DNA of 64,000 bases from an uncultured Dehalococcoidaceae bacterium (GTDB taxonomy: Bacteria > Chloroflexota > Dehalococcoidia > UBA2979): contig CAYZJO010000002.1 in the NCBI GenBank assembly GCA_964479165.1, positions 265,493 through 329,492 of the forward strand. Direction: 5' to 3'. Below the pieces are notes generated by a model that saw nothing but the letters and a program-made list of their open reading frames with translations, ran no database searches and was not told where the DNA came from. Positions 1 through 16,933 of this stretch are shown piece after piece (position 1 is the first letter of the stretch; every line of letters begins with the position of its first letter). The position numbers and the translations under genes are program-made.

Positions 1-490
1 ACGGCTGTGCGTCTTCGAGCTGCGTATTGTTCCCCAGGCGAGCATCCTCACTGAGCACCGTACCGTTCCCGCGGTCGGTAACCAGCGGCGTCCGGCCCGT
101 GGCCAGCTCGAGGGCGCGCCGCAGTCCTCGACGTGTCCCACGCCACCGATGCAGCTCGAGCGCCTCGCGGATCAGCCGCCCGCGCGCCTCGTGCGAGAGG
201 CGCGCGAACGGCCCCGTCGACTCCTCGCCGAGCCAGTCGCCCAGCAGTTGCTGGAGTGCCGGCGGGGCAATCACGGGGTCGAAGTAGTCGGGGAGCGTCG
301 AAGCCATCTGGCGCACCGGTGTGTGGATGTCCTCGAAGATGCGCAGGAAACGCCCGATGAACGGGTCCTGCTCGTAGATCGAGGGAAGGTAGCGCAGCAA
401 CCGGCTCGGCTCGACGTGGGTCGTCTCGAGGTCGAAGTCGGGCACGTCCGCTCGTGGTGCAGGGCCGGCTCCGGGGGCGATCGTGACCAT
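1..490 (-). CDS. Afp12 / phage tail protein I (gpI)-like baseplate protein, N-terminal part only; gene continues beyond the window start
   Basis: My own translation of the reverse strand from an ATG at 488-490 gives MVTIAPGAGPAPRADVPDFDLETTHVEPSRLLRYLPSIYEQDPFIGRFLRIFEDIHTPVRQ... with no stop down to position 1. The LLRYLPxxY...FLRxFE pattern is typical of the gpI/Afp12 N-terminus. It starts 10 nt after the baseplate J stop. It is absent from the ORF track because it runs off the edge. Confidence 0.55.
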   Translation of the reverse strand, partial: MVTIAPGAGPAPRADVPDFDLETTHVEPSRLLRYLPSIYEQDPFIGRFLRIFEDIHTPVRQMASTLPDYFDPVIAPPALQQLLGDWLGEESTGPFARLSHEARGRLIREALELHRWRGTRRGLRRALELATGRTPLVTDRGNGTVLSEDARLGNNTQLEDAQP

Positions 491-500
491 GGGCCGCCTC

Positions 501-2465
501 CTACTCCACCGTCTCGGCGAGGACGAAGCAACTCCCGAGGACGAGCAGCCCGTTCGCAGGCGCGTCCGCCCGCGACGTCTGCTGGTCGCCGACGCGCATC
601 CGGACCCGCTCGACGAAGGCAACACCCGGCAGGTTCTGCAGCGCGGCCGCGATCTGCGACTCGGTCACGCCCGAGCCGAGCTCCCACCCGCGTCCTCGGG
701 GACCGCCTACGAGCGGATTGAGGAAGCGACGGAGTGCTGCCTCGGCACGGGCGGTCATCTCCTCAGTACCAATCCCCTGCTCCACGAAGAGGTGCGCGTC
801 GATGTCGACGATGGCGTTCGCCGGCCCGACGTACTCGACGGTCGTCCCGAGGATCTTGCGCTCGTCGATGCTGGCGCTGACCTCGCGGATAAGCGCGCGC
901 GAGGGCGTCAGACCTTCCGCTGGCAGCGCGGCCTCGGGATCGCCGACATCAGGCACCACGACCAGCCTCACAACGCCGGGCGCGACGTCGAGGACGCAGT
1001 GCGCGCGGCCGACGCCGGGGATCGTGCTCGCGACGCGCTCGTAGTCGTCCTTGGTGACGACCGTCTCGGTCGTGTGCAGGACGGAAAGCGAGCGAAGTCG
1101 CGCCTCCTCGATGGACTCGCTGTCGAGCCCGCCGGTTGCGGGGCGGTAGTTCATGACCGCGCCGATGTACGGCACGGAGGAGCGCAGCTGCGTGATCGCG
1201 CCCTCACCGACGTTGCCCTCGGCGCCGCCGCCCGTGCGGTACGCCGTCATCACCAGGGTCTCCCCACGTCGCGGCGACGCGCCGAGCGTGCGCAGCGTGC
1301 CGTCGCGGCCTCGCATCGAGGAACCGAAGTGGACAACCCCGTTCTCGTAGTCGAGGACGAAGTGCAGGTCGTCGTCGCGCGACCCGCCGAAGTCGTCGAC
1401 CTCGGTCCATGTGCGCACCTCGGTGTCGCGCGTCCCCTCGATGGTGTGCGGCGTCGGGCTGCGCAGGACCGGGTGATCGCGCAGCTCAAGGACCTGCCCG
1501 GGCTCGCCATCGCCCTGCCCGAGTACCTCACCCTGCGCGAGGTAGGCGTGCCGCGCGCGCACCGTCGCAGCGATCGCGGCGGCTGCGATCGAGATGATGA
1601 CGGGTGACTGCTCATAGGCCTGGCCCGGCTTCAGCGTGTGTCGCACTCGGACCCACGTCGCCTCGACGCCGTCGACCGTCGTGCGTCGCGAGTCGATCGG
1701 GACGTGGAGGTAGAGATCGCCCGCGCGGTTGAGGCCGAGCGTCGGGTCCATGTCGCCCGGAGCGCGACGCCTCCCGGTGCCCGTGCTGTCGAGGAGGGGC
1801 AGCGACCGCCAGTCGCCGCGGTCATCCGACCAGTACTCCCACGACAGCGGCGGGTCGCGCGGATCGATGTGGGTCGCCGCGTGCAGGGCGGCGTCGATGC
1901 GCAGCTGCAGGCTCTGCCCCGCGAGATCGCCCTCGAAGCCGATGTAGAACGCGTCGCCGTCCTGCGGCTCCTCGTTGAAGATCGGCGCCTCGACGCGACC
2001 ACCGGTCGTGTACGGCAGGTAGTTCTCGAAGCCCGAACCCTGCCGCCACGCGCGCTGTGCGATGAGCACAGGCTGATCGATCGTCAGCGGCTCCATCGTC
2101 GCGAAGACAAGTGCCTCGGTGTCCTCGGTGCGGTCGGTCGCGACCTCGGTCTCTGCCGGCACGGTGAATGGACGCTGGAGCGGCGCCGACAGGTAGAAGG
2201 TGACGTCGACCTCGGCCGGAACGGGCGGGTAGCGCTTCACGCCGACCATGTCGAGGAAGCGCTCGTACATCGCGTCCGGCACGCGGTTGATCTGGTACAG
2301 CGTCATCTCGGTCATCCACGCGAATAGCTCGAGCAGCGTGATGCCGGGGTCGCTGACGTTATGGTCTGTCCACTCCGGGCAGTAGCGCGGGATCAAGCGT
2401 CGCGCCTCGTCGACGATGTCCTGGAACTCGCGCAGGTCGAGGGGCCGGTCGGGCGTCGTCACCAC
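501..2465 (-). CDS. baseplate J-like protein (Afp11-like, putative baseplate assembly protein)
   Basis: 654 aa with a GTG start. The N-terminus RYCPEWTDHNVSDPGITLLELFAWMTE matches the WTDHNxSDPGxTLLE signature of the baseplate_J / TIGR02243 family. It follows gp25 directly. Confidence 0.85.
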   Translation of the reverse strand: MVTTPDRPLDLREFQDIVDEARRLIPRYCPEWTDHNVSDPGITLLELFAWMTEMTLYQINRVPDAMYERFLDMVGVKRYPPVPAEVDVTFYLSAPLQRPFTVPAETEVATDRTEDTEALVFATMEPLTIDQPVLIAQRAWRQGSGFENYLPYTTGGRVEAPIFNEEPQDGDAFYIGFEGDLAGQSLQLRIDAALHAATHIDPRDPPLSWEYWSDDRGDWRSLPLLDSTGTGRRRAPGDMDPTLGLNRAGDLYLHVPIDSRRTTVDGVEATWVRVRHTLKPGQAYEQSPVIISIAAAAIAATVRARHAYLAQGEVLGQGDGEPGQVLELRDHPVLRSPTPHTIEGTRDTEVRTWTEVDDFGGSRDDDLHFVLDYENGVVHFGSSMRGRDGTLRTLGASPRRGETLVMTAYRTGGGAEGNVGEGAITQLRSSVPYIGAVMNYRPATGGLDSESIEEARLRSLSVLHTTETVVTKDDYERVASTIPGVGRAHCVLDVAPGVVRLVVVPDVGDPEAALPAEGLTPSRALIREVSASIDERKILGTTVEYVGPANAIVDIDAHLFVEQGIGTEEMTARAEAALRRFLNPLVGGPRGRGWELGSGVTESQIAAALQNLPGVAFVERVRMRVGDQQTSRADAPANGLLVLGSCFVLAETVE

Positions 2466-2489: not shown

Positions 2490-2954
2490 TTAGTCCTCGC
2501 CGATGAGGTAGAAGGGATAGACGAGCGTCCGGTCGTCCTTCGTCGCGCGGATCTGGTAGCCGATCTCGATGTCCACCCAGCCGTGCGCCGGCGTCGGCAC
2601 GATCTCGATGTTCACCACGTCGATGCGCGGCTCCCAGAACGCGAGCGCCTCTTCGACGTAGCGGCGCATGTATCCGAACGTCGTCGCGTTCAGCGGAGCG
2701 AAGACGAGCTCGTGGATCTGGCAGCCGAACGTCGGCCGCATCCGCCGCTCCCCCGGACGCGTTCCGATGATGATGCGGATGGCCTGCTCGATGTCCGTGT
2801 CGTAGCGCGCCATCGCGATGCCGCCGCGCGCACGGCTCACCGACGTCAGCTCGTAGGGCCTCCGCAGATCGACACGCACCGGGAAATGCCAGCCGACGCC
2901 GACAATCTGCTCCTCGACGTTGCCGTTCCGGCCGTTGCCGTTGCTCATCACCAT
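2490..2954 (-). CDS. GPW/gp25-family baseplate wedge protein (Afp9-like)
   Basis: 154 aa. IEQAIRIIIGTRPGERRMRPTFGCQIHELVFAPLN matches the GPW_gp25 core. Alternative start at 2948. Confidence 0.85.
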   Translation of the reverse strand: MVMSNGNGRNGNVEEQIVGVGWHFPVRVDLRRPYELTSVSRARGGIAMARYDTDIEQAIRIIIGTRPGERRMRPTFGCQIHELVFAPLNATTFGYMRRYVEEALAFWEPRIDVVNIEIVPTPAHGWVDIEIGYQIRATKDDRTLVYPFYLIGED

Positions 2955-2979: not shown

Positions 2980-4722
2980 TCATGGCCCGATCGCCACGTT
3001 GGGCGCCTTCACCTCGGTGCGGCCGCTGGCCTGCAACGTTGCGGTCGCGTTCGCCTTGAGGTTGAGCTGCGTCCCCGCCTCGACGCTCGTGGCGCCGGTC
3101 GAGCTCTTGAACGACAGCGAACCCGTTGCCTCGAGCTTGATGTCGCGGTCCGCCTTCATCTCGATCGATCCCTTGGCCTTGATCGTGACGTCGCCGTCCA
3201 TCTCGATCGTCAGGCTCTTCGCCTGCGTGTCGATCAAGAGCTTGTTGCTGCCGGTCGAGTCGACGATGGTGATGCCCGGCGAACTGCTGCTGTCGTCGAG
3301 GATGAGCGTGTGGCCCGTCCGCGACTTGATGATCCGGCGCTCCACCTGGCCGCCCGCGACGTTCTTCGAGCTCACCTCGGGCGGCTTGTCTCGCTGATTC
3401 CAGAGGCCACCGAGGACGAAGAGCTGATTGACGTCGCTCCCGACGACGAGCACTTCGTCGTCGACCTCGGGGAGGAACTGCACCCCGCGCTCGGCGCCCG
3501 CGCCCGGCGAGACGACGCGGCACCAGTGGCTCTCGACGTCCGCGCCGAGCGTCGGCAACTTCACCTTCACCCGGCCGCGGTCGCCTTCGTCGTCCTTGTT
3601 GTTCGTGACGATGCCGACCAGCATCTGCATCCCACCACCGGATCGCGGCGATAGCAGGCTGAGGACGTCCGTCGGGCGGCGTCCCGAGATGCTGAAGTGG
3701 TTGCGGTAGCCGTCCTGGCCGTAGCTGTGGGTGACGGCCGTGACGAAGTAGCTGCCGCTGAAGCGCTGCCCGGCGTTCTGGATCTTGAGCTCGCTCCCCA
3801 GGCGCAGCCGCGGATCGCCGATCGCCTCGCCCTCGGCGGTGATGAAGGCCTGCTCGAGCTCGTTGAGGGCGGCCTGTGCCAGCGCCGTCGCCTGCGTCAG
3901 GTTCACGATGTGCTCGCGGGCGATGACAACCTTCGCGCTGTCGTTGAACGACTTCTTGGCGGTGTCGCCGCCGGAAGACCGCTCCTCGACCTCGGTGGTC
4001 ACCTCGCCACGCTTCGCGGTTCCGACGATTTCTTCCTTCTTCAAGGGGTCCCAGCCGCGAACCTCGACTTCCTTCACCTGCTCGGACGCCGTGAGTTGGG
4101 CACGGAAGGACAGCAGGTTGTCGCCGTAGGTGAGATCGACCCCCTCCGCCTCAATGCTGGGCGGCGCTTTCATCACGAGCTTCTTGCCCTGCACCTGCAG
4201 CTCGAGGCCGTTGCGCTGGGCGCGGTCCTGCAGGAACTCCCAGTCCGTCCGGTTGTCCTGGAGGACGTAGGCGTGCACCGGCCTCGTGGTGGTGACCTCC
4301 GCGGTCATCCCGCGCTCCTGTGCGATCTTCCGAGCAATGTCCGCGTCGGACATGCTGTTGAAGACGCGCGTCTGGCGTCCGCGGTGCAGGCGGTAGCCCC
4401 GGTCGTAGGCACGCACGACCAGCTGCGCGACGCCGGCCATGTCGTTGTTCAGCTCGATTCCCGTGATCTCGCCGACGAACACCTCCCGACGCAGGTTGTT
4501 GCTGCCGAGTTCGATGGTCAGCTCGGCGCCGATCTTCATCTGCGTCGAGTCCGACCACTCGAAGTCGAGGTCCCCGAACGTCAGCGTGGCCATGTCCGGC
4601 AGGTGCACGCTGCTGTCGACCTCGAGCTCGAGGAGGTCGGCGAGCATCGCGTCAGGAATCGCCGCTCCGTTCGCCTTGATGAAGGCCTGTGCGACCGCGC
4701 GTTCGGCGACGTCACTCGGCAT
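2980..4722 (-). CDS. VgrG / phage late control gene D-like spike protein (Afp8-like) with C-terminal beta-helix repeats
   Basis: The ORF track extends to 4773, but an ATG at 4720-4722 (MPSDVAERAV...) removes the overlap with the upstream LysM gene. The protein has a gpD-like N-terminal region and a C-terminus with gp5-like repetitive beta strands (DGDVTIKAKGSIEMKADRDIKLEATGSLSFKSSTGATSVEAGTQLNLKA). Confidence 0.85.
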   Translation of the reverse strand: MPSDVAERAVAQAFIKANGAAIPDAMLADLLELEVDSSVHLPDMATLTFGDLDFEWSDSTQMKIGAELTIELGSNNLRREVFVGEITGIELNNDMAGVAQLVVRAYDRGYRLHRGRQTRVFNSMSDADIARKIAQERGMTAEVTTTRPVHAYVLQDNRTDWEFLQDRAQRNGLELQVQGKKLVMKAPPSIEAEGVDLTYGDNLLSFRAQLTASEQVKEVEVRGWDPLKKEEIVGTAKRGEVTTEVEERSSGGDTAKKSFNDSAKVVIAREHIVNLTQATALAQAALNELEQAFITAEGEAIGDPRLRLGSELKIQNAGQRFSGSYFVTAVTHSYGQDGYRNHFSISGRRPTDVLSLLSPRSGGGMQMLVGIVTNNKDDEGDRGRVKVKLPTLGADVESHWCRVVSPGAGAERGVQFLPEVDDEVLVVGSDVNQLFVLGGLWNQRDKPPEVSSKNVAGGQVERRIIKSRTGHTLILDDSSSSPGITIVDSTGSNKLLIDTQAKSLTIEMDGDVTIKAKGSIEMKADRDIKLEATGSLSFKSSTGATSVEAGTQLNLKANATATLQASGRTEVKAPNVAIGP

Positions 4723-4724
4723 CG

Positions 4725-5369
4725 CTAGACCACCGGCACAATCGCGAGGCGCTGCCCGGGCCGGAGCGACCACGGGTCATCGAGACCGTTGGTCTCGGCG
4801 ATGTGGTGCCAGCGCGCTGCGTCGCCGAGCTCGCGGTAGGCGATGAGGTCGAGCGTCTCGCCGGGCAGCACGGTATGACTGCGGAGCCCGCGCTCGCCTC
4901 CCGAGGTGGGGTTCTGCCCCGAGGGCTGGTCCGGCACCTCCTCGAGGCTGACCTTCACCTTCGCCCTCGCCGGCCGGCCGTCCGGGTGGAACATCGTGTA
5001 CGTCACGTCGACCGAGCTGACGAGCGACTTGAACAGCGTCTCGTTGCCCCAGCCGAACTTCACGAACTGGGGCCGCGGCTTCTTCGCGGCCCCCTCGGTG
5101 CCGCTGTCCACCATGACCAACTTCTCGAGCTTCGAGACGAAGTCGCGGACATTGCCGTCGTTCTCGTACTCGTCGACGAAGATCTCGAAGGAGAGCTTGC
5201 GCGCCTCACCGCTCTCGAACTCGAGCTTGGGGACGTTCTTGCCCTTCTGCTCGGTGCGCTTGAACTTCACGCGCTTGGCGATGGTGTATTCCTTCGGGTT
5301 GAAGGCGAACTCCACGCGCGTCTTCGCGCCATCGACTCCCTCGATGTAGGCCTTGTCCGGATTCGGCAT
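4725..5369 (-). CDS. LysM-domain tail protein (Afp7 / phage gpX-like)
   Basis: 214 aa. C-terminal LysM segment HTVLPGETLDLIAYRELGDAARWHHIAETNGLDDPWSLRPGQRLAIVP. A strong RBS (GGAGGAGG) lies upstream of the ATG at 5369. Confidence 0.8.
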   Translation of the reverse strand: MPNPDKAYIEGVDGAKTRVEFAFNPKEYTIAKRVKFKRTEQKGKNVPKLEFESGEARKLSFEIFVDEYENDGNVRDFVSKLEKLVMVDSGTEGAAKKPRPQFVKFGWGNETLFKSLVSSVDVTYTMFHPDGRPARAKVKVSLEEVPDQPSGQNPTSGGERGLRSHTVLPGETLDLIAYRELGDAARWHHIAETNGLDDPWSLRPGQRLAIVPVV

Positions 5370-5383
5370 CGCCGGTCCTCCTC

Positions 5384-7789
5384 CTACGTCCAGCGCTCGC
5401 CGCGGCCGGCGCGCTCGCGTTCGACGACGAAGCGGCGTCGCAGCCGCGTGTAGATGGCCTGCGCCAGGCGATCGAGTGCCTGCGCGTCCGGCTCGGCGGG
5501 GGCTTCGGCACCGGTGTCGGAGGCGGGCGTGCTCTCGGGAGGCTCCGCCATCTCCGCGCGCAGGACCGCAACGGGCCCCTCCGACCGTGCCTGCCGGAAG
5601 ACCTCCTCGTCGGCTGCTGGCGCGGTGGTGTGACGGGTTATCGAGGGCTGCTCGGCGCGCCGCACGGCCGCCTCGACGCGGGGGGACGGCGTCAGAGGTG
5701 GCGCACTACGGGGACTCGCCGCCCCGGGCGCAAGTCCGAGCTGCCGCGCAAGCACGTCGGCGTGCACCGTCTGAGGGCGGGCGTCAGCCGGCGCGGGCAT
5801 CGATTCGGGCGCCGGGCGGCGGAAGACGCGACGTACCTCGCTGGGCGCGGGGGCTTCGGCGCGCGGACTTCGGTGCAGCAACGTGGGGGCCGCGGGACTC
5901 GTCGGCTCCGTCACCCGTGCTGCGAGGTCCACCGCAGGCGACGCTGACGCCGGCGCCTCGATGCGAGCCTGCGCGGGCGGCGCAGCGGCCGGGGGGTCGA
6001 ACGGGCGCTCACGAAGAACGAGCTCGGGTGGTGGGGCAGCGGCTGTGCGACGGCTCTGCGGTGCAACATCCCTGATCGGCTCGGCTGGCCCGAGCGACTC
6101 GCTGGGTCGGGCCGCTGCAACCACTTTCGCGCCGGCAACCAGCGCTGCCGTCATGTGTGCTCGCAGCTGCTCAGAGTCTGGCGCGGCGCCTGCATCCATC
6201 CGAGCAGTGAGCTGCAGCGGGATCGGGCCTTCCGCGCGGGCGCGCTCCTCCTGCACCGTCGACTCGCCCGGCGCGATATCTGGTGGGGCCGCAGGTTCAG
6301 CCACAACCTCGTCGAGGTGGAACTCGTGGCGGAGGAGGAGACGCGACTCCAGCATCGGTGGCGAACTCACGGCCCTCTCAGGCTCTGAAGTCGCCGAGGT
6401 TCGCGCAGGCTGCTGTGCTCGAGCCGTCGTAGTTGTCGTCGCGGTGGTGCCTGGCTCCGGGTGTCCCGAGATACGACGAAGAACGCGCCGAACGAGCGAC
6501 GGCCCTGGCGATGCCGGCTGCTCGGACCCGACCGCAGGAGGGGCGGGCGCCGGTCCCGGCCCGAGTGCAGGCGCAGGATCGTCTCTCGCGACGGCTGGCT
6601 GCGTCCCCGGCCCCCCGGCAGCAACCTCGATGCGCGGTGCGACCGGACGAGCCTCCGCGCCCTCGCCCTGATCGAGCGGTCGGGGCACGGGGTCGGCGCT
6701 CACCAAACGCTGCACGCTGACCGCTTCCGCCGGACCAGCCTCGTGGCGCAGCTCAAGACGGACAGGCGGCACGTCGCGCGAAGGCGGCGTCTTGTCCGCA
6801 TCGTCGCGCAACGTGGGAGCACTCGGGCGTTCGTCGCTGGCCGGCCCCTCCATCACGTCCTCCCCAACGACAACGTGCGGGGTCTTCGCGGGAGGCGTGG
6901 GCTCCGAGGCAGGCTCCGCAGCGTCGGACGGAGCCGGTGCTTCGCGGCGAAACACGCGCCGAGCGAACGTGGCCAGCGGCGACGTCGCGCGCGCGGCGGG
7001 TTCCTCGGCGGTCGGATGTTCCGCGTGCTGGGTGGCCGGGGTTGCCGAGGCCGGGGTGGGCTCGACGCTGGGCTGGCGCATCAGCGCGGATGGCGAAGCC
7101 TGGAGCGACGCCTCGTCCTCATGCGCAGGGTGGCGCGCGACGAGTCGCCCCGGTTGTGTCGTGGAAGCGGGCGGCGGAGCCGACGTTCGCGCCTCGGCGA
7201 CGGGCGGAGGCTCGGAGACGACAGGTGACGCGTACCTCGATTCCGCCTCAACCGCCCGCGCGGCCATCGACCGCGGCCGTGGAGGTCGGGCGGACGCGTC
7301 GATGCCCGGCTCGGGACGCGGGTCCAGCAACCGGAAGATGCGCCGCACGAAGGGAACGCGGGGCGCGGGAGTGCTCGTGGTCTGCACCACCGGCGCGTCG
7401 ACGTCGCCGGCCTCGCCCCCGTCCGCGGGACCGAACGGCTGCGCGAGGCGCGCGAGCGACGCTGCCGTCGGCGACTGGATCGTGAGCACGGGGCGCTCCA
7501 GCCGCGTCGCCGGCTTCAACGGCTGGCGGAGCGCGGGATGAGCCTCGGGGGTGGTGAGCGTGCGCGCGACCCTCGTGCGCGCGGGACTGCGCTGCGCCTG
7601 GCGCAGCAGCGCGATGCCGGGCGTACGTCCGAGGCGTGTGCCCATCGTTGGCACGTCAGGGTTGTCGCCCCACGCGCCGGGGATCGTCAGCCCCTCAATG
7701 CGGCGCTCTGCCTCGCCATACCAGTCCCGCGAGGCCAGCCCCTCCGAAGGCGTCTTGGCTGCGCCGTTGGTGGTGTTCACGTTATCCAC
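5384..7789 (-). CDS. Pro/Ala/Arg-rich low-complexity protein; candidate tape-measure / tail length-determination protein (Afp14-like)
   Basis: 801-aa ORF with no stops, tightly packed between the second tube gene (8-nt overlap, GTG start) and the LysM gene. Its position (tube, chaperone-like gene, TMP, gpX, gpD) mirrors phage and eCIS synteny. The composition is highly biased, so the assignment is positional and compositional only. Confidence 0.45.
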   Translation of the reverse strand: MDNVNTTNGAAKTPSEGLASRDWYGEAERRIEGLTIPGAWGDNPDVPTMGTRLGRTPGIALLRQAQRSPARTRVARTLTTPEAHPALRQPLKPATRLERPVLTIQSPTAASLARLAQPFGPADGGEAGDVDAPVVQTTSTPAPRVPFVRRIFRLLDPRPEPGIDASARPPRPRSMAARAVEAESRYASPVVSEPPPVAEARTSAPPPASTTQPGRLVARHPAHEDEASLQASPSALMRQPSVEPTPASATPATQHAEHPTAEEPAARATSPLATFARRVFRREAPAPSDAAEPASEPTPPAKTPHVVVGEDVMEGPASDERPSAPTLRDDADKTPPSRDVPPVRLELRHEAGPAEAVSVQRLVSADPVPRPLDQGEGAEARPVAPRIEVAAGGPGTQPAVARDDPAPALGPGPAPAPPAVGSEQPASPGPSLVRRVLRRISGHPEPGTTATTTTTARAQQPARTSATSEPERAVSSPPMLESRLLLRHEFHLDEVVAEPAAPPDIAPGESTVQEERARAEGPIPLQLTARMDAGAAPDSEQLRAHMTAALVAGAKVVAAARPSESLGPAEPIRDVAPQSRRTAAAPPPELVLRERPFDPPAAAPPAQARIEAPASASPAVDLAARVTEPTSPAAPTLLHRSPRAEAPAPSEVRRVFRRPAPESMPAPADARPQTVHADVLARQLGLAPGAASPRSAPPLTPSPRVEAAVRRAEQPSITRHTTAPAADEEVFRQARSEGPVAVLRAEMAEPPESTPASDTGAEAPAEPDAQALDRLAQAIYTRLRRRFVVERERAGRGERWT

Positions 7790-8237
7790 TCGGGATCAGC
7801 CCCGCGTGTGCGAACTCGAGGGTCTCGATGGCCGCGTCGTTCGACGTGACGTTGAGCGCGGGACCGCTCCACTTCACGGGGAACGCGTCCGAGAAGTCCC
7901 AGCGGCGCACGGTCGCGCCCTCGGAGTCCGCGAGGATGATGCTGATCGGCTTGCGGGCCAACTCCCCGCGCGCCACCTCGAGGAACCAGTCGTACAGCTC
8001 GGTCGAGGCGAACACGGCCTGCTTGAGGCTGATGTTGTCGTAGCTCATACGGCCGGGAAACTGGTGCGCGTGCGTGTTGAGGCCGCCCTCCTCCCACTTC
8101 TCGACGGAGATCGTCGCGGTGAGGCCGCCGCACTCGGTGAAGATGCCCTGCACGCTGCCGTCGATCTCGACCATGAAGCTGAAGCCGAGGCCGATCGCCA
8201 CATCGTCGAGCGACTTGCTGTCGTAGAGGACGGCCAT
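7782..8237 (-). CDS. contractile-tail inner tube protein (Afp5-like, second tube paralogue)
   Basis: 151 aa starting MAVLYDSKSLDDVAIGLGFSFMVEIDG, homologous in pattern to the tube protein at 9137..9601 (MPQLYDSGAVSEDPLLGFAFYLDLES). Confidence 0.85.
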   Translation of the reverse strand: MAVLYDSKSLDDVAIGLGFSFMVEIDGSVQGIFTECGGLTATISVEKWEEGGLNTHAHQFPGRMSYDNISLKQAVFASTELYDWFLEVARGELARKPISIILADSEGATVRRWDFSDAFPVKWSGPALNVTSNDAAIETLEFAHAGLIPSG

Positions 8238-8451
8238 CGCCCGCTACCTCCAGCGCTCGATGCCACCGCCGCGGCGCTCGCGCTGACGCGCGAGGTCCTC
8301 GGCGAGCAGCCGGTAGACGCGCTCGGTGAGCTGGTCGAGGGCGCGCTCGGACAGGGCCGCCGGCTCTGCGGTCGGAGTCCCGGTGTTGGGCGCAGCCTCG
8401 ATGGGCTCGTTCATGCGGTCTCGGTTCCTTCGACGGCGCGGGCGTCGCGAC

Positions 8452-8714
8452 TCACGAACGCCCGGCGTTCATTCGCTCGTTGATGCGGCTGATCTCCTCA
8501 GCCCAGGCGCGGCGCTCCCGGTGCTCGAGGCGCAGCACTTCGTCTCGCGGCCAGTGGAAGTGGTACGAGACGAAGGCTGCCTCCTCCAGCAGTTGCTGCT
8601 CCGGGTAGCCGACGGCGCTCCAGTGCCGGCCGAGCCGCCGCAGCCCGAACTCGCCGAGCTCCTTGCTCAGCGTGTCATCGGCGGCAGGCCCGCCGCCGCG
8701 AGCGCCCGTTCCAG
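8452..8714 (-). CDS. -1 frame extension ORF; candidate transframe C-terminus of the upstream CxxC protein (tail assembly chaperone-like). It has no independent start codon.
   Basis: This -1 frame segment encodes a protein-like sequence (…LSKELGEFGLRRLGRHWSAVGYPEQQLLEEAAFVSYHFHWPRDEVLRLEHRERRAWAEEISRINERMNAGRS). There is no in-frame ATG/GTG/TTG after the stop of ORF 8667..9137. The only in-frame start (GTG 8823) would add a junk-like Arg/Gly N-terminus. Confidence 0.4.
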
Positions 8715-9137
8715 GAAAGGGTTCGGGGCTCCGCCGACCTCCACCGGCGCCGCCTCGGCGGCCGGCAGAGGCAACGGCGCATCGTCCTCCTCGAGCGACA
8801 TCGGGACGAAGTGCTCGCCGCACGCCGGGCAGCGGACGCTGCCGCTGTCGTCCACGAGCTCGTTGCGCTGCCGGTAGAACTCCTGGAGGAACGCGAGGTC
8901 CGTCGTGAACAGCCCCTCGATCACCCCCGTGTCGACCTGCGGCAGCGTGCCGAGCTTCGTGATCACGCGCGCCAGCAGCACCACCGTGTGGTACGCGGGG
9001 TTCTGCCGGACGCGCGGGTCGCGCAGCGGCGTGATCTCGTCCATCGCCGTCGCAAGCCGCATCGTGCCCTTGCGGTGCAGGTTGCCCGCCCGGTCGACGA
9101 AACCTCGCGGCAGGAAGAACTCGAACTCGGTTTGCAT
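8667..9137 (-). CDS. eCIS-associated hypothetical protein with a CxxC motif (RCPACGEHF); candidate tail-assembly chaperone. Zero-frame product is 156 aa.
   Basis: Its start overlaps the upstream tube gene stop (TGATG). It lies between the two tube genes. I recognise no named domain. Confidence 0.6.
   Translation of the reverse strand: MQTEFEFFLPRGFVDRAGNLHRKGTMRLATAMDEITPLRDPRVRQNPAYHTVVLLARVITKLGTLPQVDTGVIEGLFTTDLAFLQEFYRQRNELVDDSGSVRCPACGEHFVPMSLEEDDAPLPLPAAEAAPVEVGGAPNPFLERALAAAGLPPMTR
8715..8721 (-). promoter_or_regulatory. candidate -1 programmed ribosomal frameshift slippery heptamer C CCU UUC (Pro140-Phe141 of ORF 8667..9137)
   Basis: X XXY YYZ pattern in the zero frame. After a -1 slip the reading continues PGTGARGGG...LSKELGEF in the 8452..8823 frame. 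A 7-bp GC hairpin (cggcggc/gccgccg, 8679..8698) lies 16 nt downstream. Confidence 0.35.
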
Positions 9138-9601
9138 CAGCTCACCCTCTTGATGCCCTCATGCACGATGGTGATCTCCTCGACGCCGAATTCATTCGAG
9201 TCGACCTTGAGCGAGGGACCGCTGATCTTCGAGGGCCAGGCGTTCACGAAGTCCCAGCGAGCAACGGGGTTGTACTCGGAGTCCATCATCGTGATGGTCC
9301 CGTTGGTGCGGGCCTCCCTGACCTTGCCCTCGTTGACCTTCTGACGCCAATCCCAGAGTTCCATGTTGCTGGTGATGCCACGCTTGAGCGTGATGTCACC
9401 CCACTTGAGCTTCCCGGGAACCTTGAGAATGACCGCGTTCCCGTCCTTGTCGACGACCTTCTGCTCCACAACCTCGGTCTCGGCGCCGATGCCGGAGACC
9501 TCAGTGAAGAACCCACCGCCGGCGCTTTCGAGGTCGAGGTAGAACGCAAACCCGAGGAGCGGATCTTCCGAGACGGCCCCGGAGTCGTAGAGCTGTGGCA
9601 T
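9137..9601 (-). CDS. contractile-tail inner tube protein (Afp1-like)
   Basis: 154 aa. The pattern LGFAFYLDL...FTEVSGIGAETEVVEQK...PGKLKWGDITLKRG...ELWDW is typical of eCIS / T4 gp19-like tube proteins. Confidence 0.85.
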   Translation of the reverse strand: MPQLYDSGAVSEDPLLGFAFYLDLESAGGGFFTEVSGIGAETEVVEQKVVDKDGNAVILKVPGKLKWGDITLKRGITSNMELWDWRQKVNEGKVREARTNGTITMMDSEYNPVARWDFVNAWPSKISGPSLKVDSNEFGVEEITIVHEGIKRVS

Positions 9602-9656: not shown

Positions 9657-11267
9657 CTACTCCTCGGCGCCCGGCGTGATCTGGCTGATGCGGAAGACAA
9701 CGAACTCGGCGGGTTTCACCGGCGCGATGCCGATCTCACAGACGAGGATGCCCGCGTCGATCATGTCCTGCGTGTTCGTCTCCGAGTCGCACTTCACGTA
9801 GAACGCCTCTTGCGGCGTCGCGCCGAAGAGCGCGCCCTGCGTCCACGTGCGGTTGAGGAACGCCGTCACGTCGCGGCGGACCTTCGCCCAGGTGCGCTGG
9901 TCGTTCGGCTCGAAGGGGACCCACTGCGTGCCCTGCTCGATGGAACCCTTGATGTAGTTGAAGAGCCGCCGCACGTTGAGGTAGCGCCACTCCGACGCCG
10001 CCTCGGCGAGCGTGCGCGCGCCCCAGATGCGGATGCCTCGACCCGGGAACGAGCGGATGCAGTTCACGCTCTGCACGTTCAACGTGCCGAGCTCCGCCTG
10101 CGTCAGGCTCGTCTCGAGATCAATGGCGCCCATCACCTCCTCGTTGGCCGGCGCCTTGTGCACGCCGCGCCGCGAGTCCGTGCGCGCCCATACTCCGGCG
10201 ACATGCCCGGACGGCGGGATGAACGACGCCGTCTTCGCTGCCGGGTCGTCGACCTTGATCCACGGGTAGTAGAGGACGCCGTAGCCACTGTCGCTCACGA
10301 GGTTCGCCTGCTTGCGCCAGTTCTCCATCTCCTGCGGAGACAGGCCCGGAGGCGAGTCGATGATCGCGACGCGATCCTCCATGCGCGTGCAGTGCGCGAT
10401 GAGCTGCTTCTGGACGGAGACCACGCCCTCCATGTCGATCAGGCCCTCCTGGAAGGCCTTCCACAGGTCGGGGATGGCGATCATCGTGACGTCGTCGAGC
10501 ACCTCGAGGCCGTCGATGCCCTCGCGGCGGGCGACGTCGCCCTGGAAGTCGGACGGGGAGACGGCGGTGACCGTCTCGGCGCCCTCGGCGAGGTTGTACG
10601 TGCCGACCGGCGGGACGCGGTTCGCGATGCTCACGCCGCGCGGCTGCAGGTCCTCGACGCTGATGAACATCGAGCCGCCGGACTCGGCGTTGATGACGTC
10701 GACGACGTAGCGCGCGTCGCTACGGCTGAGCGACAGGTCCTCGAAGGACTCTGCCGGGTACCCGGGCGCGCGCACGGTGATGCGGAAGCGGCCACCACTC
10801 TCGGATGCCTCGGGCGCCGGAGGCGCGTCCTCAGACGGCGCCCCGTCGCTGCCAGCGGGGGGAGCCGGCGGCGGCGCCGTTGGCTGGTCCTCGATCTCGA
10901 TGCGGACGTCGTTTCCCTGGGTGCCGGTCAGCTTCGAGGTGAAGCGGAGCGACTCCTGGGGCGATGCACGCCCCGGCAGCGCGAGCTGAGCGGGTGTGCT
11001 GTCGCCTTCACCGCCGATGCGGATGACGTAGCAGTTGCCGCCGCCGTTCATGAAGAAGCCGTACACCGCCAGCGGCGTGTACGAGCGGGTGAACCCGCCG
11101 AACGTCTCCTGGTACTGGGTCCAGTTCGTGACTCGGACGGCGCGGCCGACCGGGCCCTTCTCGGTGAACCCGACGAAGGCCGCGACCGACGTGCCGATAC
11201 CCTCGATGGGGCGGCTGCCGCTGGGGACCTCCTGCACGTATACGCCAGGCGCCTGGTAGGTAACCAT
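9657..11267 (-). CDS. contractile tail sheath protein (Afp2/3/4-like)
   Basis: 536 aa starting MVTYQAPGVYVQEVPSG..., the canonical sheath N-terminus. An RBS (GAGGAGAGG) lies upstream. Confidence 0.9.
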   Translation of the reverse strand: MVTYQAPGVYVQEVPSGSRPIEGIGTSVAAFVGFTEKGPVGRAVRVTNWTQYQETFGGFTRSYTPLAVYGFFMNGGGNCYVIRIGGEGDSTPAQLALPGRASPQESLRFTSKLTGTQGNDVRIEIEDQPTAPPPAPPAGSDGAPSEDAPPAPEASESGGRFRITVRAPGYPAESFEDLSLSRSDARYVVDVINAESGGSMFISVEDLQPRGVSIANRVPPVGTYNLAEGAETVTAVSPSDFQGDVARREGIDGLEVLDDVTMIAIPDLWKAFQEGLIDMEGVVSVQKQLIAHCTRMEDRVAIIDSPPGLSPQEMENWRKQANLVSDSGYGVLYYPWIKVDDPAAKTASFIPPSGHVAGVWARTDSRRGVHKAPANEEVMGAIDLETSLTQAELGTLNVQSVNCIRSFPGRGIRIWGARTLAEAASEWRYLNVRRLFNYIKGSIEQGTQWVPFEPNDQRTWAKVRRDVTAFLNRTWTQGALFGATPQEAFYVKCDSETNTQDMIDAGILVCEIGIAPVKPAEFVVFRISQITPGAEE

Positions 11268-11342: not shown

Positions 11343-12222
11343 CTAGTCCTCCGACCGCTCCCCTTCGCCTTCGGAGGGTTCGTCGCCCTCCGCAGTCGCG
11401 AGATCGAGCGTGAGCACGCTGCCATCCGCGTACGCGCCGGCGGGTTCTTCCGACGCGAGCCGAAGGATGTCTCCATTGATGGCCACAAGTGCCGCCGTCG
11501 AGCCGCGGCGGACGCCGCGCAGCTCGAACGTGCCGTCCGCGCGGCTGGTCGCCGCTGAGCGATCCATCCGCACCTGCGCGCCAGCGACGGGCTCGCCATC
11601 GCGCACGAGGCGTCCGGTTATGTCGACCGGGATGTCCGGACTGACCGAGACGGGCGGCGGCATGACGATGCGCCGCTCGAGGACGAGCGGGCCCTCGCGC
11701 TGGATCTCGAGCTCGATCGGGATCGTGACCGACACCCGGATCGACGGCCGCAGGTCGTTGTCGAGGACGCTCCAGATGTCCACGATGTCCTTGATGGCCC
11801 CCGGCTGCGCGACCATCATCGGGATCTCGTAGCTCTCGGGAATGACGCCGTCGAAGGCCTCGAGGGGCAGCGTGAGGTGGCGGAAGAAGACGCGCGCCGC
11901 CCCCGTCAGCAGGCGGTGCTCGTCCTCGACCTCGTTGGACCAGGCGGTCACGAGGTACGAGCACTCGACGCGGATCGGGGGCCGCTTGTCGACGAAGCCG
12001 CCGTTCATACGCCCGGTCTCCCAGGGCGCGGGACGCAGCGTCCGGTTCTCCTGCATGTGGTAGAGGAAGAGGTTCAGCGTCGGACGCGTGAGCCTCGACG
12101 TGTTGTCGCGGCTGGGCACGTCGAAGGTAATGTCGAAGCCGCCCGCCTCGATGCGCTCGACGACGGTCGGCATCTCGGTGACGAGCAACGTACGCAGCGC
12201 GCGGTCGAGATCATCGATCATG
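11343..12222 (-). CDS. DUF4255 (Pvc16_N) tail terminator/cap-like protein (Afp16-like)
   Basis: The ORF track extends to 12506, but the conserved family N-terminus MIDDLDRALRTLLV...PTLNLFLYHMQENRTLRP begins at the ATG at 12220-12222. The upstream 95 codons are an Arg/His-rich in-frame artefact. Confidence 0.65.
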
Positions 12223-12316
12223 GCGCGCGCACCGTAGCGGCACGCGATTGCTGAATCGTTGCTTGCTCGTTGATAGGCGGGCTCGCGGCCGCCAACGGTC
12301 GCCACCCGGCCGGCGA

Positions 12317-12646
12317 CTACGTCCCGAGGACCTGCACCTGCCCCGGGTTCGCGATGATCGCCGGTACCCCCGGCGACCCGCCCATGCACAGGCCGATGCT
12401 GCTGGCGAGCAGCACAGGGATGTTGTTCACGAAGGTGCTGACGGCGGGCATCGTCCACTGGATGCTGACGCACGGCGCTGGCGCGCCCGCGATGTTGAAC
12501 ACGCATCCGGCGATCATCGTGACGTCACTCACCACGAGGACCGGGGCACCGCCGATGAGCACGGTCGGGTTGCTCGGCACAGTTGTCGCCTGCCCACCAT
12601 GAGGGCACATGATGGTCGCGGACGCGTTGAGGATCGGCGCCGGCAT
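12317..12646 (-). CDS. PAAR-like spike-tip protein (Afp10-like)
   Basis: 109 aa, Gly/Pro/Ala/Val-rich, with MCPHGGQ...VLIGGAPVLV motifs typical of PAAR-like domains. An alternative start at 12610 would give MCPHGG. Confidence 0.55.
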   Translation of the reverse strand: MPAPILNASATIMCPHGGQATTVPSNPTVLIGGAPVLVVSDVTMIAGCVFNIAGAPAPCVSIQWTMPAVSTFVNNIPVLLASSIGLCMGGSPGVPAIIANPGQVQVLGT

Positions 12647-12675: not shown

Positions 12676-13488
12676 CTAAGCGCCTGCCGCCGCGCTCGGG
12701 CCGTGCGGGCTCCGGTGCAGCGACATCTGGATACCTTCCTCATCTTCTTCCGGCACGTCTTCCCGGTGGAGCGAGGGTGCGAGCTCGGGCTCCTCTTCCT
12801 CTTCGGGAAGCTCGCGTGCCAGCGTCGAGGACATCTGCAGCTCTTCCTCAGGCAGCTCCTCCCGGGCCAGCGCCGAGGACATCTGGAGTTCCTCCTCCGG
12901 CGCTTCCTCGCGGGCGAGCGAGGTGCTGATGCTCGAGGACGGCGCGGACGCGAGCTCCTTCGAGAACGCCGACGCTTCCTGCTCCGCGGCGTCCTGCGGG
13001 CTGCTCACCCGCATGTCGCTGCCGCCGACTCCACCTTCACCGCCGCGCTGCTGCACGACGTGCGTCAGCTCGTGCGCGAGGAGTTGGTCGCCGCCGCTCG
13101 TGCCGGGCTGGTACTTGCCCTGCCGGAAGAAGATGTCCGACCCCGTCGTGAACGCGTCCGCCGACACGGCGTGGTTGAGCAAGTTCGCCTCGGAGTCGTC
13201 GTGCACGCGCACGTCGCTGAGGTCCGCGCCGAGCGCACCGCCGACACGTCGCTGCACCTCCGTGTCGAGGGAGCGACCGCCGCCCCGCTTCGACTCGATG
13301 GCATCCTCGACAGTCGAGTCGACAGCCGGATGCTCCTCGTCATGCTCGGACCGCAGCAGTCGCTGGACGGCCGCGTTACCGAGGGTCGAGACCAGCGGCG
13401 GCCGCGGGCGCGCTGCCTGGGGGCCGTCGGCCTCCGTCTCGCGCTGCCTCGCCCGTACCTCGTCCGTGAGTTCGTGGTCGAGAGTCAT
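12676..13488 (-). CDS. DUF4157 (eCIS-associated, HExxH zinc-metallopeptidase-like) protein with acidic C-terminal tandem repeats
   Basis: GRSLDTEVQRRVGGALGADLSDVRVHDDSEANLLNHAVSADAFTTGSDIFFRQGKYQPGTSGGDQLLAHELTHVVQQ matches the DUF4157 core. I prefer the start at ATG 13486-13488 (MTLDHELT, RBS AGGAGA) over the 13539 start. N-terminal TLGNAAVQRLL motif. Confidence 0.8.
   Translation of the reverse strand: MTLDHELTDEVRARQRETEADGPQAARPRPPLVSTLGNAAVQRLLRSEHDEEHPAVDSTVEDAIESKRGGGRSLDTEVQRRVGGALGADLSDVRVHDDSEANLLNHAVSADAFTTGSDIFFRQGKYQPGTSGGDQLLAHELTHVVQQRGGEGGVGGSDMRVSSPQDAAEQEASAFSKELASAPSSSISTSLAREEAPEEELQMSSALAREELPEEELQMSSTLARELPEEEEEPELAPSLHREDVPEEDEEGIQMSLHRSPHGPSAAAGA
12800..12945. repeat. 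About three imperfect tandem copies of a 45-nt unit inside the DUF4157 gene
   Basis: The DNA units (…gccagcgtcgaggacatctgcagctcttcctc… / …gccagcgccgaggacatctggagttcctcctc…) encode LAREEAPEEELQMSS / LAREELPEEELQMSS / LARELPEEEEEPE. Confidence 0.6.
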
Positions 13489-13519
13489 GATGTCTCTCCT
13501 CGATTGCCGGTTCCGACGC

Positions 13520-15785: not shown

Positions 15786-16799
15786 CTAATCGAGCCCGAG
15801 TTCGCTCAGCAGCGCCCGCGTCTCCTCGGACGGCGCAACATCGAACTCGGCGCGGAGGCGCTCCTCGCAGAGGCGGTACTGCCGCATCGCCTGGGCGCGG
15901 TTCCCCAGCATGGCGTGAGCGCGGACCACCCAGCGGTGCGCGGCCTCGTCGAAGGCGTCGCGCAGCACCAGCGTCTGGCCCAGCTGCAGCACTCGCGCCC
16001 ACTCCCCGCTCGCCGCGCCGTACTCGATCAGCCGCGCGACTGCCCACTCGTAGAGATTGCCGAGTGCCAGCCGCGGCTCGCCGGTCCATTCTTCTGTCAA
16101 GTCGGACTCGAGGAAGTCGCCGCCGTACTCCGCAAGTGCCGCATCGAGGCACGCCACCGCCTCGGCCTTCCGGCCCGCCGCGAACTCCGACTTCGCGCGA
16201 CCGACCGCCTCGCGGAACTCGACGGCGTCCACGTGCCACTCGAGCCCGCCATCGAGGCGGTACAGACCCTGCTCGACGAACAGCCCGCGACTTCCGTCGC
16301 CGTCACCCAGCCCCTCGCGAAGCCTCGAGCGGACGTGGTGCACGGCAATGCTGAGGTTGTTCGCACCTCGCGCGGGGTCGGAGTCCGGCCAGAACGTCTC
16401 GATGAGCGTCTCGCGCGCGGTCGGCCGCCCCGGCGTCAGCGCGAGGTAGGCGAGCAACTGGCGCGCCTTGCGGCTGCGCCAGCGATCGACAGGCCGCCCA
16501 TCGATGCTCAACTCGAACGCGCCGAGCAGGCGCACGCGGACCTCGGGAACCGGGGGCGCGGACGCCTCGACCTCGATCACCGGCGCCTGACGGGTGGCTG
16601 CCGCCTCGAGACGCGGAGCCACCAGCGCGAACAACCTCGCCTGCTCGCTGCGCAGTTCCGCGAGCTCGGCCCGCGTCTCGACCATCAGGCTGTGTAGCGC
16701 GTCGAGGCGATCGAAGACCGCGACGGCAGCGACATCGTCGGGCGTGCGGTCGCGCAGGACGAACGGCAATTGCGGTTGAGCGGCGAAGGCGATCCGCAT
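15786..16799 (-). CDS. SARP-family transcriptional regulator (OmpR-type winged helix plus BTAD domain)
   Basis: VRVRLLGAFELSIDGRPV...RKARQLLAYLAL...RETLIETFWPD...ANNLSIAVHHVRSRL followed by a TPR-like BTAD region. Co-oriented with, and immediately upstream of, the eCIS ATPase gene. Confidence 0.8.
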   Translation of the reverse strand: MRIAFAAQPQLPFVLRDRTPDDVAAVAVFDRLDALHSLMVETRAELAELRSEQARLFALVAPRLEAAATRQAPVIEVEASAPPVPEVRVRLLGAFELSIDGRPVDRWRSRKARQLLAYLALTPGRPTARETLIETFWPDSDPARGANNLSIAVHHVRSRLREGLGDGDGSRGLFVEQGLYRLDGGLEWHVDAVEFREAVGRAKSEFAAGRKAEAVACLDAALAEYGGDFLESDLTEEWTGEPRLALGNLYEWAVARLIEYGAASGEWARVLQLGQTLVLRDAFDEAAHRWVVRAHAMLGNRAQAMRQYRLCEERLRAEFDVAPSEETRALLSELGLD

Positions 16800-16933
16800 C
16801 GAGGAGCCTCGGTCGGGGAGACCGCGGACGCCGGCACCGTCTCTGCCTCGTGCTATGGCGGCGGCGGCGAACGCGCGGCATTATACCAACCGCACGGACG
16901 CACACCCTCTTGTCGTCGAACAGGATTCCCTCG

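Follow-up and report, generated by a model that had tools for sequence, protein, structure and literature searches.

A proline-rich, predicted disordered protein in the tape-measure position of a Chloroflexota contractile injection system

The 64,000-nucleotide stretch of DNA analysed here (the window, taken from contig CAYZJO010000002.1 of an uncultured Dehalococcoidaceae bacterium) carries on its minus strand a complete operon for a contractile injection system (CIS), as identified by Pfam. Its central genes run in the order sheath, tube 1, a tail assembly chaperone with a -1 frameshift, a small open reading frame (ORF) of 56 amino acids (aa), tube 2, an ORF of 801 codons referred to here as X, an Afp7-like gene and VgrG (Table 1). 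X, the subject of this report, is the largest ORF in the operon, follows the genes for the tubes and the frameshifted chaperone, precedes that for the baseplate hub, and wholly fills the gap between tube 2 and the Afp7-like gene. We propose, with a probability of roughly 0.55, that its product is a length-determining or lumen-scaffold protein of the CIS, a functional analogue of tape measures that takes the form of a disordered chain stiffened by proline. X belongs to no described family, and it is closest to a tape measure in its context and in its probable role.

The GTG start codon of X (7787-7789) lies in the last codons of the tube-2 gene, which terminates with TAA at 7782-7784, and an alternative GTG three codons downstream (7778-7780) gives the 798-aa product that is used in public gene calls. 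The stop codon of X is followed by a strong ribosome-binding site, GGAGGAGG, and the ATG of the next gene. The product consists to 18.2% of Ala, to 15.6% of Pro and to 11.1% of Arg and is, with 94 basic and 99 acidic residues, a polyampholyte. Across the 2.4 kb of X no other reading frame is open, and we estimate from base composition that the chance of an 801-codon open frame at 72% GC is about 1e-6. The GC content at third codon positions (GC3) is 0.79 in the frame of X, compared with 0.85-0.95 in the neighbouring genes. A previous interpretation of the window, made from the letters and the translated ORFs (the sequence-only reading), had described a Pro/Ala/Arg-rich ORF between a "tube 2" and a "LysM gene", with a GTG overlapping the tube-2 stop. 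Coordinates, neighbours, measured composition and an intact orthologue all agree with this description, and both gene names are correct according to Pfam (Phage_T4_gp19 for the former, CIS_tube and LysM for the latter).

Judged by comparison with its relatives, X is a real gene under purifying selection. The same operon is found in a metagenome contig of the Joint Genome Institute (L009), where an intact ORF of 810 aa, 56% identical to X, occupies the same position. The alignment of the two proteins contains 67 gap columns, all of them in frame, and an intact orthologue with this many in-frame indels implies that X is a real gene. The flanking Afp7, tube 2 and sheath genes are 97-99% identical between the window and L009, with the Afp7-like gene at 99%. 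For the same pair, the ratio of nonsynonymous to synonymous substitution rates (dN/dS) is 0.40 for X and varies from 0.23 to 0.71 along its length, as compared with 0.011 for Afp7, 0.039 for tube 2 and 0.045 for the sheath. The highest values fall in the middle of X, and many indels are located in the spacer. The segments conserved in L009 are the N-terminal 145 aa, four copies of an arginine-rich motif described below, a number of short hydrophobic islands and the final ~100 aa, so that, in this alignment, the termini and the motifs of X are conserved islands within a fast-evolving spacer. Furthermore, sequence P0003 is 77% identical to X over aa 1-94, and a more distant lineage (L008) possesses an intact X ORF of up to 990 aa. 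Two long-read assemblies of the same lineage as L008 (L006 and L007) show frameshifts in X and in the Afp7-like gene; as L008 is intact, these breaks are probably assembly frameshifts.

Some of the same data have to be weighed for the opposite explanation, namely that X is artefactual, an open frame that GC content has kept free of stops across non-coding or antisense DNA, with only a short C-terminal gene being real. The GC3 of the X frame, lower than that of the neighbouring genes, would fit this explanation, and so would the public gene calls, which for X in L009 (7748-10180), L006-L008 and P0004-P0015 often comprise just the last 59-131 codons and sometimes place an antisense ORF over the rest. 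However, three diverged genomes have retained the frame, over 801, 810 and ~990 codons, in the face of an aa divergence of 44% and with all indels in frame; dN/dS is below 1, different codons encode the conserved peptide islands, the lineage of the two broken assemblies has an intact member, and the 2.4 kb offers no other open frame. We therefore reject the artefact, which is hardly credible in view of the intact orthologues, the in-frame indels and the dN/dS values. Orthologous loci without the ORF, or with frameshifts and stops, had been named in the sequence-only reading as the outcome that would speak against the gene; X is intact in L009 and L008, and the breaks in L006 and L007 are those attributed above to assembly.

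Because gene callers under-call X, it is nearly invisible in protein databases. A whole-protein, word-indexed search with X returned a single match, which was X itself, and a phmmer search over 1.8 billion representatives returned five matches, all of them fragments or C-termini. Similarly, a profile search with the C-terminus of X returned only gene calls of 42-131 aa.

An important element of the genomic context is the tail assembly chaperone encoded upstream of X. This G-like protein carries a CPxC motif and matches phrog_508, as do 11 of 11 orthologues tested (best E 3.1e-9). Directly after it follows a highly conserved segment of ~70 aa, …GYPEQQLLEEAAFVSYHFHWPRDEVLRLEHRERRAWAEEISRINERMN, in the -1 frame, which constitutes a T-like extension, and the GC3 signal switches into this frame. 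The same -1 offset between chaperone and extension is seen in 20 of the 20 loci that encode the chaperone. In all 20, an in-phase X_XXY_YYZ heptamer lies within the last 25 chaperone codons, as compared with 1.6 expected from codon shuffles, a comparison among related loci that are not independent trials. The heptamers are of the types C_CCT_TTN, C_CCG_GGG or G_GGG_GGN, which differ between clades, and only two in-phase heptamers occur in the remaining ~2100 codons. Beyond the slippery site, the RNA is predicted to fold no more stably than shuffles (z -0.61), and there is thus no evidence for a stimulatory RNA structure at this site. An AlphaFold2 (AF2) model of the chaperone, built from a single sequence, reached a predicted local distance difference test score (pLDDT) of 44.

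The arrangement has the hallmarks of the lambda gpG/gpGT pair, with two overlapping ORFs, a conserved -1 heptamer near the end of the first and a candidate tape-measure gene close by; the fusion product itself is predicted. Further points of likeness are the size of the chaperone ORF (~120-156 aa in the relatives), its membership in phrog_508 and the location of its gene just after a tube gene. In contrast to the lambda pair, that of the window is part of a CIS locus with an AAA+ ATPase, a Pvc16 cap and eCIS_core and of no phage, and its extension is Pfam DUF6760, a domain listed as of unknown function, which would thereby gain a probable role. Judged by reading frames and slippery sites, the phage G/GT system has been retained in a lineage of CIS. 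In phages, frameshifted chaperones of the lambda gpG/gpGT type act on the tape measure, as reported by Xu, Hendrix and Duda. In the literature searched, we found no report linking such chaperones to CIS. As a frameshifting tail assembly chaperone is present, a tape-measure-like client is expected, and X is read as the tape-measure or lumen-scaffold analogue since it is the only candidate for such a client in the operon or its flanks.

Table 1. Features of ORF X and of the surrounding CIS operon, with positions counted in nucleotides from the first letter of the window.
Feature	Position	Strand	Remarks
ORF X	5384..7789	(-)	GTG start, 801 aa; Pro/Ala/Arg-rich, mostly predicted disordered; candidate tape-measure-like lumen protein
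Conserved N-terminal region of X, aa 1-145	7355..7789	(-)	dN/dS 0.23-0.27; aligns with L009, L014, L015 and L060
"RDW" helix, aa ~21-31 of X	7697-7729	(-)	within conserved N-terminal region
"RPVLTIQS", aa 99-106 of X	7472-7495	(-)	within conserved N-terminal region
Motif copy 1, VRRIFRL	7328..7348	(-)	context PFVRRIFRLLDPRPEPG; hydrophobic moment 0.93, highest in X; conserved in L009
Motif copy 2, ARRVFRR	6944..6964	(-)	context TFARRVFRREAPAPSD; VQRVFRR at the aligned L009 position
Motif copy 3, VRRVLRR	6473..6493	(-)	context SLVRRVLRRISGHPEPG; L009 core identical
Motif copy 4, VRRVFRR	5816..5836	(-)	context SEVRRVFRRPAPES; conserved in L009 and fragment P0002
Conserved C-terminal module of X, aa 765-801	5387..5497	(-)	PDAQALDRLAQAIYTRLRRRFVVERERAGRGERWT; pLDDT 83-96; proposed baseplate-hub anchor
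Predicted helix, aa 768-792 of X	5414-5488	(-)	AF2
Tail assembly chaperone (G-like), 156 aa	8667..9137	(-)	CPxC motif; phrog_508 E 2.5e-6
Slippery heptamer C_CCT_TTC	8715..8721	(-)	in phase; candidate -1 frameshift site
-1-frame extension (T-like, DUF6760)	8452..8714	(-)	PF20546 E 1e-17; no obvious start codon of its own
56-aa small protein	8244..8414	(-)	…ALDQLTERVYRLLAEDLARQRERRGGGIERWR; free-standing paralogue of X C-terminal helix
Tube 2 / tube initiator (Cis5-like)	7782..8237	(-)	Phage_T4_gp19 1e-38; directly upstream of X, translationally coupled
Afp7/Cis7-like tube-initiator/hub protein	4725..5369	(-)	CIS_tube + LysM; directly downstream of X
SARP regulator	15786-16799		Pfam
WHD + AAA ATPase	13520-15712	(-)	Pfam
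eCIS_core/DUF4157 protein	12676-13539	(-)	Pfam
DUF4280 (PAAR-like)	12317-12646	(-)	Pfam
Pvc16_N cap	11343-~12250	(-)	Pfam
Sheath	9657-11267	(-)	Pfam
Tube 1 (gp19-type)	9137-9601	(-)	Pfam
VgrG	2980-4773	(-)	Pfam
gp25	2490-2954	(-)	Pfam
Baseplate_J	501-2465	(-)	Pfam
P2_I	2-664	(-)	Pfam

The product of X is predicted to be largely disordered. In the AF2 model the mean pLDDT is 46 and 626 of 800 residues score below 50; helices are placed at aa 22-31, 538-551, 702-746 and 768-792, of which only the last is confident. Prolines are spread evenly through the protein, with 4-12 per 50 residues, and the longest Pro-free run, of 34 aa, coincides with the C-terminal helix; long helices cannot be formed by X. 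The sequence-only reading had spoken of a largely Pro/Ala-rich, disordered chain with punctuated basic-hydrophobic motifs, which, given the AF2 model and the composition, is a fair description.

The motif in question, (V/A)RR(V/I)(F/L)R(R/L), has four cores in X, which start at aa 148, 276, 433 and 652. Four copies were reached in none of 20,000 composition-preserving shuffles of X, the maximum being one, and a relaxed pattern has exactly four occurrences in the six-frame translation of the window, all of them in X. The sequence-only reading had reported four dispersed copies at intervals of 130-230 residues, and the observed spacings of 128, 157 and 219 residues fit; it had located copies 1 and 2 correctly and copies 3 and 4 with offsets of ~18 and ~63 nucleotides, respectively, and its term "periodic" is not appropriate for spacings as irregular as these. 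The copies differ in their codons and none of them lies in a DNA repeat, which rules out an origin from a DNA repeat or a recent duplication. Despite the twin-arginine-like "RRxF", a twin-arginine translocation (Tat) signal is also ruled out, since the copies lie within the protein, are not accompanied by a hydrophobic h-region and run on into polar, Pro-rich sequence. The motifs represent the four strongest alpha-helical hydrophobic-moment peaks of X (0.86-0.93); positions i, i+1, i+4, i+5 and i+8 are hydrophobic, the opposite face is occupied by arginines, and a Pro-rich cap is present. When segments are scored as cationic and amphipathic, X reaches a count of 4 with a shuffle mean of 0.21, and none of 300 shuffles attains this count. 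The RR motifs are probably docking sites for the chaperone or for the tube lumen. Docking to sheath subunits, which had also been suggested, is unlikely, because X would be expected to sit inside the tube.

Among the relatives of X, the number of motif copies depends on the criterion. Matches to the strict regular expression are confined to the window and L009, and this expression was replaced by the hydrophobic-moment criterion, according to which the count of cationic-amphipathic segments is 4 in L009 (810 aa), 5 in L008 (up to 990 aa), 3 in L060 (762 aa), 8 in L043 (2610 aa) and 0 in several other X lineages of various lengths. The RR-type motif is specific to the clade of the window, which comprises L009, L008, L014-L016 and L060. 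Motif-like copies are present in L015, L016, L060, where the background is much less Pro/Ala-rich, and L008, which has six or seven of them (e.g. LDLVTRVARLLRRPARPP). Conservation of the motifs in homologues, to which the sequence-only reading had tied its proposal, thus holds for the orthologue in L009 and does not extend to the whole family. Compared with protein length, as that reading had suggested, the motif number ranges from 2 to 6-7 in seven proteins of ~600 to at most 990 aa, which is at best a weak scaling, and several lineages have none. Homologues without the RR motif (L020, L023, L031, L035) repeat "ETIARKYAP", "LIAAKYDIV", "IFQKYQPTEYG" and many "h-VQR" tokens, and different short motifs, for example IAxKYxP and hVQR, are repeated in other X clades. 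It appears to be a trait of the X family that short linear motifs recur along a disordered chain, their sequence being specific to each clade.

A profile search of GTDB representative genomes with an alignment of 38 Afp7 sequences yielded 41 loci, 39 of them real relatives; an earlier search of genome contigs with a 3-sequence Afp7 alignment had found nothing, and a profile search of viral contigs gave two irrelevant loci. All 39 belong to metagenome-assembled genomes (MAGs) of Chloroflexota, from the Dehalococcoidia, Chloroflexia, Anaerolineae and Caldilineaceae, and their Afp7 proteins are at most 49% identical to that of the window. In most of the ~40 loci a single ORF of ~600 to ~2600 aa, with 9-23% Pro, extends over the whole interval between tube 2 and Afp7. 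The only feature common to all ORFs in the X position is the terminal (P)DxxxLAxxVYxxI/LRRRLxxERERxG; the N-terminal domain and the short motifs in the interior each belong to particular clades. By sequence, the family has no match in Pfam, NCBIfam, PHROGs or PDB, with the exception of eCIS_core/DUF4157 in Caldilineae-type members of 2500-2600 aa, while the N- and C-terminal pieces of X do not match Pfam even at E<=10 and five long homologues do not match any PHROG.

In several Caldilineaceae and Anaerolineae MAGs (L036, L041, L043-L046, L052), the ORF in the X position reaches 2100-2600 aa, and the last quarter of these long ORFs holds an eCIS_core/DUF4157 domain, as shown for L036 and L043. 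These loci do not have the chaperone, and they keep the small helix protein and a C-terminal EPDWDRLAEKIYPLIxRMLxxERERRPL. The long architecture looks like a tape-measure/effector fusion reminiscent of Tme, a tape-measure-related CIS effector of Streptomyces davawensis.

Comparison with Tme also bears on the possibility that X is mainly a lumen-loaded cargo or effector, like Tme itself or the likewise tape-measure-related Sle1 of S. lividans, which would be tethered to the spike by its helix and injected, so that its cationic helices act on membranes or proteins of the target once delivered. Membrane binding is typical of cationic amphipathic helices, and X evolves fast, as many effectors do. 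The domain found in L043 and L036 is an effector marker, which is shared with Tme, and the CIS clade of Tme includes Chloroflexota. Like X, Tme (BN159_7576) is the largest ORF directly upstream of the baseplate genes (in the case of X, those for tube initiator and spike) and is largely disordered, to ~70%; it interacts with the spike and the tube initiator (PMC11126660). However, X of the window contains neither DUF4157 nor a transmembrane segment, a coiled coil, or a nuclease, toxin, enzymatic or other effector domain, and the locus encodes a separate eCIS_core protein (12676-13539). Moreover, the conserved G/GT-type chaperone points to a role in assembly. X differs from Tme also in having no reported tape-measure homology and in its C-terminus, which is the presumed anchor helix, and from Sle1, which is helix-rich and encoded beside the DUF4157 gene. 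Cargo is therefore an unlikely main function of X, and it would be compatible with a tape-measure role, as phage tape measures are also ejected.

The C-terminal helix has a counterpart in the same operon. The 56-aa protein is homologous to the C-terminus of X (hhalign probability 97.7%, E 1.3e-12) and occurs in practically all related loci, with or without the chaperone. It has no match in Pfam, PHROGs or PDB, and sequence searches of PDB with three profiles (the X C-terminus, the small protein and the chaperone) returned de novo designed helices or nothing. The 56-aa protein might be the actual spike plug or might act as a partner for the anchor helix of X. A related explanation regards X itself as an over-grown spike plug of the Cis6/Afp6 type, in which only the C-terminal helix works, sealing the spike cavity as a trimer, and the N-terminal part is a near-neutral linker. 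In support of such a plug, X lies between cis5 and cis7, which is the site of cis6 in Anabaena, in the antifeeding prophage (AFP) and in the Photorhabdus virulence cassette (PVC; Pvc6). Cis6 of the thylakoid-anchored CIS (tCIS) of Anabaena (7B5H) is a trimer that plugs the spike cavity and extends a flexible loop into the tube lumen, only part of the protein being modelled (PMC8894136). Family-wide conservation limited to the C-terminal ~40 aa, a free-standing paralogue of the helix and a spacer with many indels and dN/dS up to 0.71 would likewise be in line with a plug. On the other hand, neither the profile of the X C-terminus nor that of the small paralogue found a solved CIS chain at E<=10 among PDB chains, where 7B5H with Cis6 is expected to be included. 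In contrast to Cis6, X has a long N-terminal extension, of which the first 145 aa and the four motifs are constrained, and its locus encodes the additional helix paralogue before cis5. Furthermore, an ORF of 600-2600 aa is maintained in every lineage, and the chaperone pair needs a client. We consider a mere plug distinctly improbable.

The proposal that X is an analogue of tape measures draws on the comparison with lambda gpH, T4 gp29, P2 gpT and Afp14/Pvc14/Alg14. Like these, X is the largest ORF of the tail module, is placed after the tube and chaperone genes and before the hub, as in the gene order of P2, Mu and pyocins, is paired with a -1-frameshifting chaperone and combines conserved termini with a length-variable middle, while its C-terminal helix is plausibly lodged in the hub. 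It differs from them in its high Pro content and predicted disorder, with no long helices or coiled coil, and in the absence of detectable homology. The tape-measure gene of AFP and PVC, by contrast, is located elsewhere, after afp13, and a tube-initiator gene lies between the chaperone and X. No canonical tape-measure gene was found elsewhere in the locus or in the 10-kb flanks of L001 and L009, where a second candidate outside the window would have contradicted the sequence-only reading. The tape-measure candidate put forward in that reading is strengthened by its position, by the chaperone with frameshift and by the conserved C-terminal helix.

Several observations weigh against this proposal. 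Sequence searches of Pfam, NCBIfam, PHROGs and PDB chains found no homology of X to Afp14/Pvc14 or to any other tape-measure family. Canonical tape measures, including Alg14 of the extracellular CIS (eCIS), are mainly alpha-helical, and neither the AF2 model nor the Pro content of X is that of a predominantly alpha-helical or coiled-coil rod. The term "disordered" in turn rests partly on composition, because the AF2 alignment for X was shallow, with nine rows. Several X lineages have no RR motif, and the number of copies follows protein length only loosely; the long homologues carry the effector-typical eCIS_core/DUF4157 domain in loci without a chaperone. Finally, X is not a general solution for lineage II, since cis5 (Sco4248) and cis7 (Sco4247) of S. 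coelicolor are adjacent genes with no gene between them. An X orthologue at the same position in S. coelicolor is ruled out by this adjacency and by the divergent transcription of sco4248 and sco4249.

The case of S. coelicolor is of interest because CIS of lineage II have been reported to be without afp14 homologues and yet of uniform particle length (PMC6899500, PMC10066040, PMC12237407). No tape measure is reported for the gene clusters of S. coelicolor and S. lividans, although the S. coelicolor particles are strikingly uniform in length. The absence of a tape-measure gene is stated for lineage II CIS, the Streptomyces systems included, in these papers and in a further one (PMC10286715).

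We infer the lumen location of X, its function as a ruler and the binding partners of its motifs from sequence, synteny and prediction, and a possible course of assembly can be outlined on this basis. The conserved C-terminal amphipathic helix (aa 768-792) would anchor X inside the baseplate, in the hub and spike cavity that the Afp7-like protein and VgrG form; such anchoring is proposed because the C-termini of tape measures and the Cis6 plug are positioned in this way in solved tails. The remainder of X would run along the tube axis and, during assembly, would be coated by the tail assembly chaperone and its -1-frameshift fusion, in the manner of G/GT. The four Pro-capped cationic amphipathic helices formed by the RR motifs might dock the chaperone, or else contact an acidic tube lumen; the lumen is negatively charged in the Anabaena tCIS, AFP and PVC (PMC8894136). 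The tube would then polymerise around X up to its N-terminal region (aa 1-145), located at the distal end, where the Pvc16-like cap would close the particle, and firing would expel X together with the spike. With the slope published for eCIS, 0.2156 nm/aa, a protein of 801 aa would correspond to ~173 nm, and as a fully extended chain, at ~0.34-0.36 nm per residue, it could span roughly 270-290 nm. The more specific idea that a disordered, Pro-rich family with cationic docking helices and a C-terminal anchor is the missing length or lumen-scaffold component of lineage-II CIS, acting with a G/GT chaperone that binds the RR motifs, is tentative and somewhat doubtful.

X is a conserved, unannotated gene in the slot of the phage tape measure, one that is often missed by gene callers, and together with its ~40 relatives the locus offers a testable candidate for the way in which CIS without a tape measure set their length. 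If X acts as a ruler, tail length would be set by a disordered, Pro-rich chain whose nm-per-residue rule differs from that of helical tape measures, and this would provide a new handle on length and cargo capacity in the engineering of CIS delivery particles. If X is cargo instead, it would introduce a tethering helix of a new kind together with a novel class of disordered payload.

Some further observations concern the genes around the operon. The longest ORF of the cap gene (11343-12506, minus strand) overlaps the DUF4280 ORF (12317-12646) by 190 nucleotides; as the L009 orthologue is called at 292 aa, the true start of the Pvc16_N cap is probably near 12220-12250. An ORF at 19211-~20200 on the minus strand encodes an N-terminal region with HVLHLQRTRGNSYVQRLL, followed by a folded-looking domain of ~330 aa, and has no Pfam match. 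The HVLHLQRTRGNSYVQRLL region appears to resemble the leader of DUF4157/eCIS-associated proteins, and the ORF could be an orphan effector of the CIS. On the plus strand, divergent from the SARP regulator, 16850-19159 encodes a seemingly secreted protein in which a Peptidase_C39-like domain is accompanied by a Thr/Pro linker and PKD repeats. A similar protein, with "FYPER.RYEDIAP.L.SSRLFE" in common, adjoins the X operon in the distant locus L006 (5684-7966, minus strand), which suggests a conserved association of the Peptidase_C39-like protein with the CIS.

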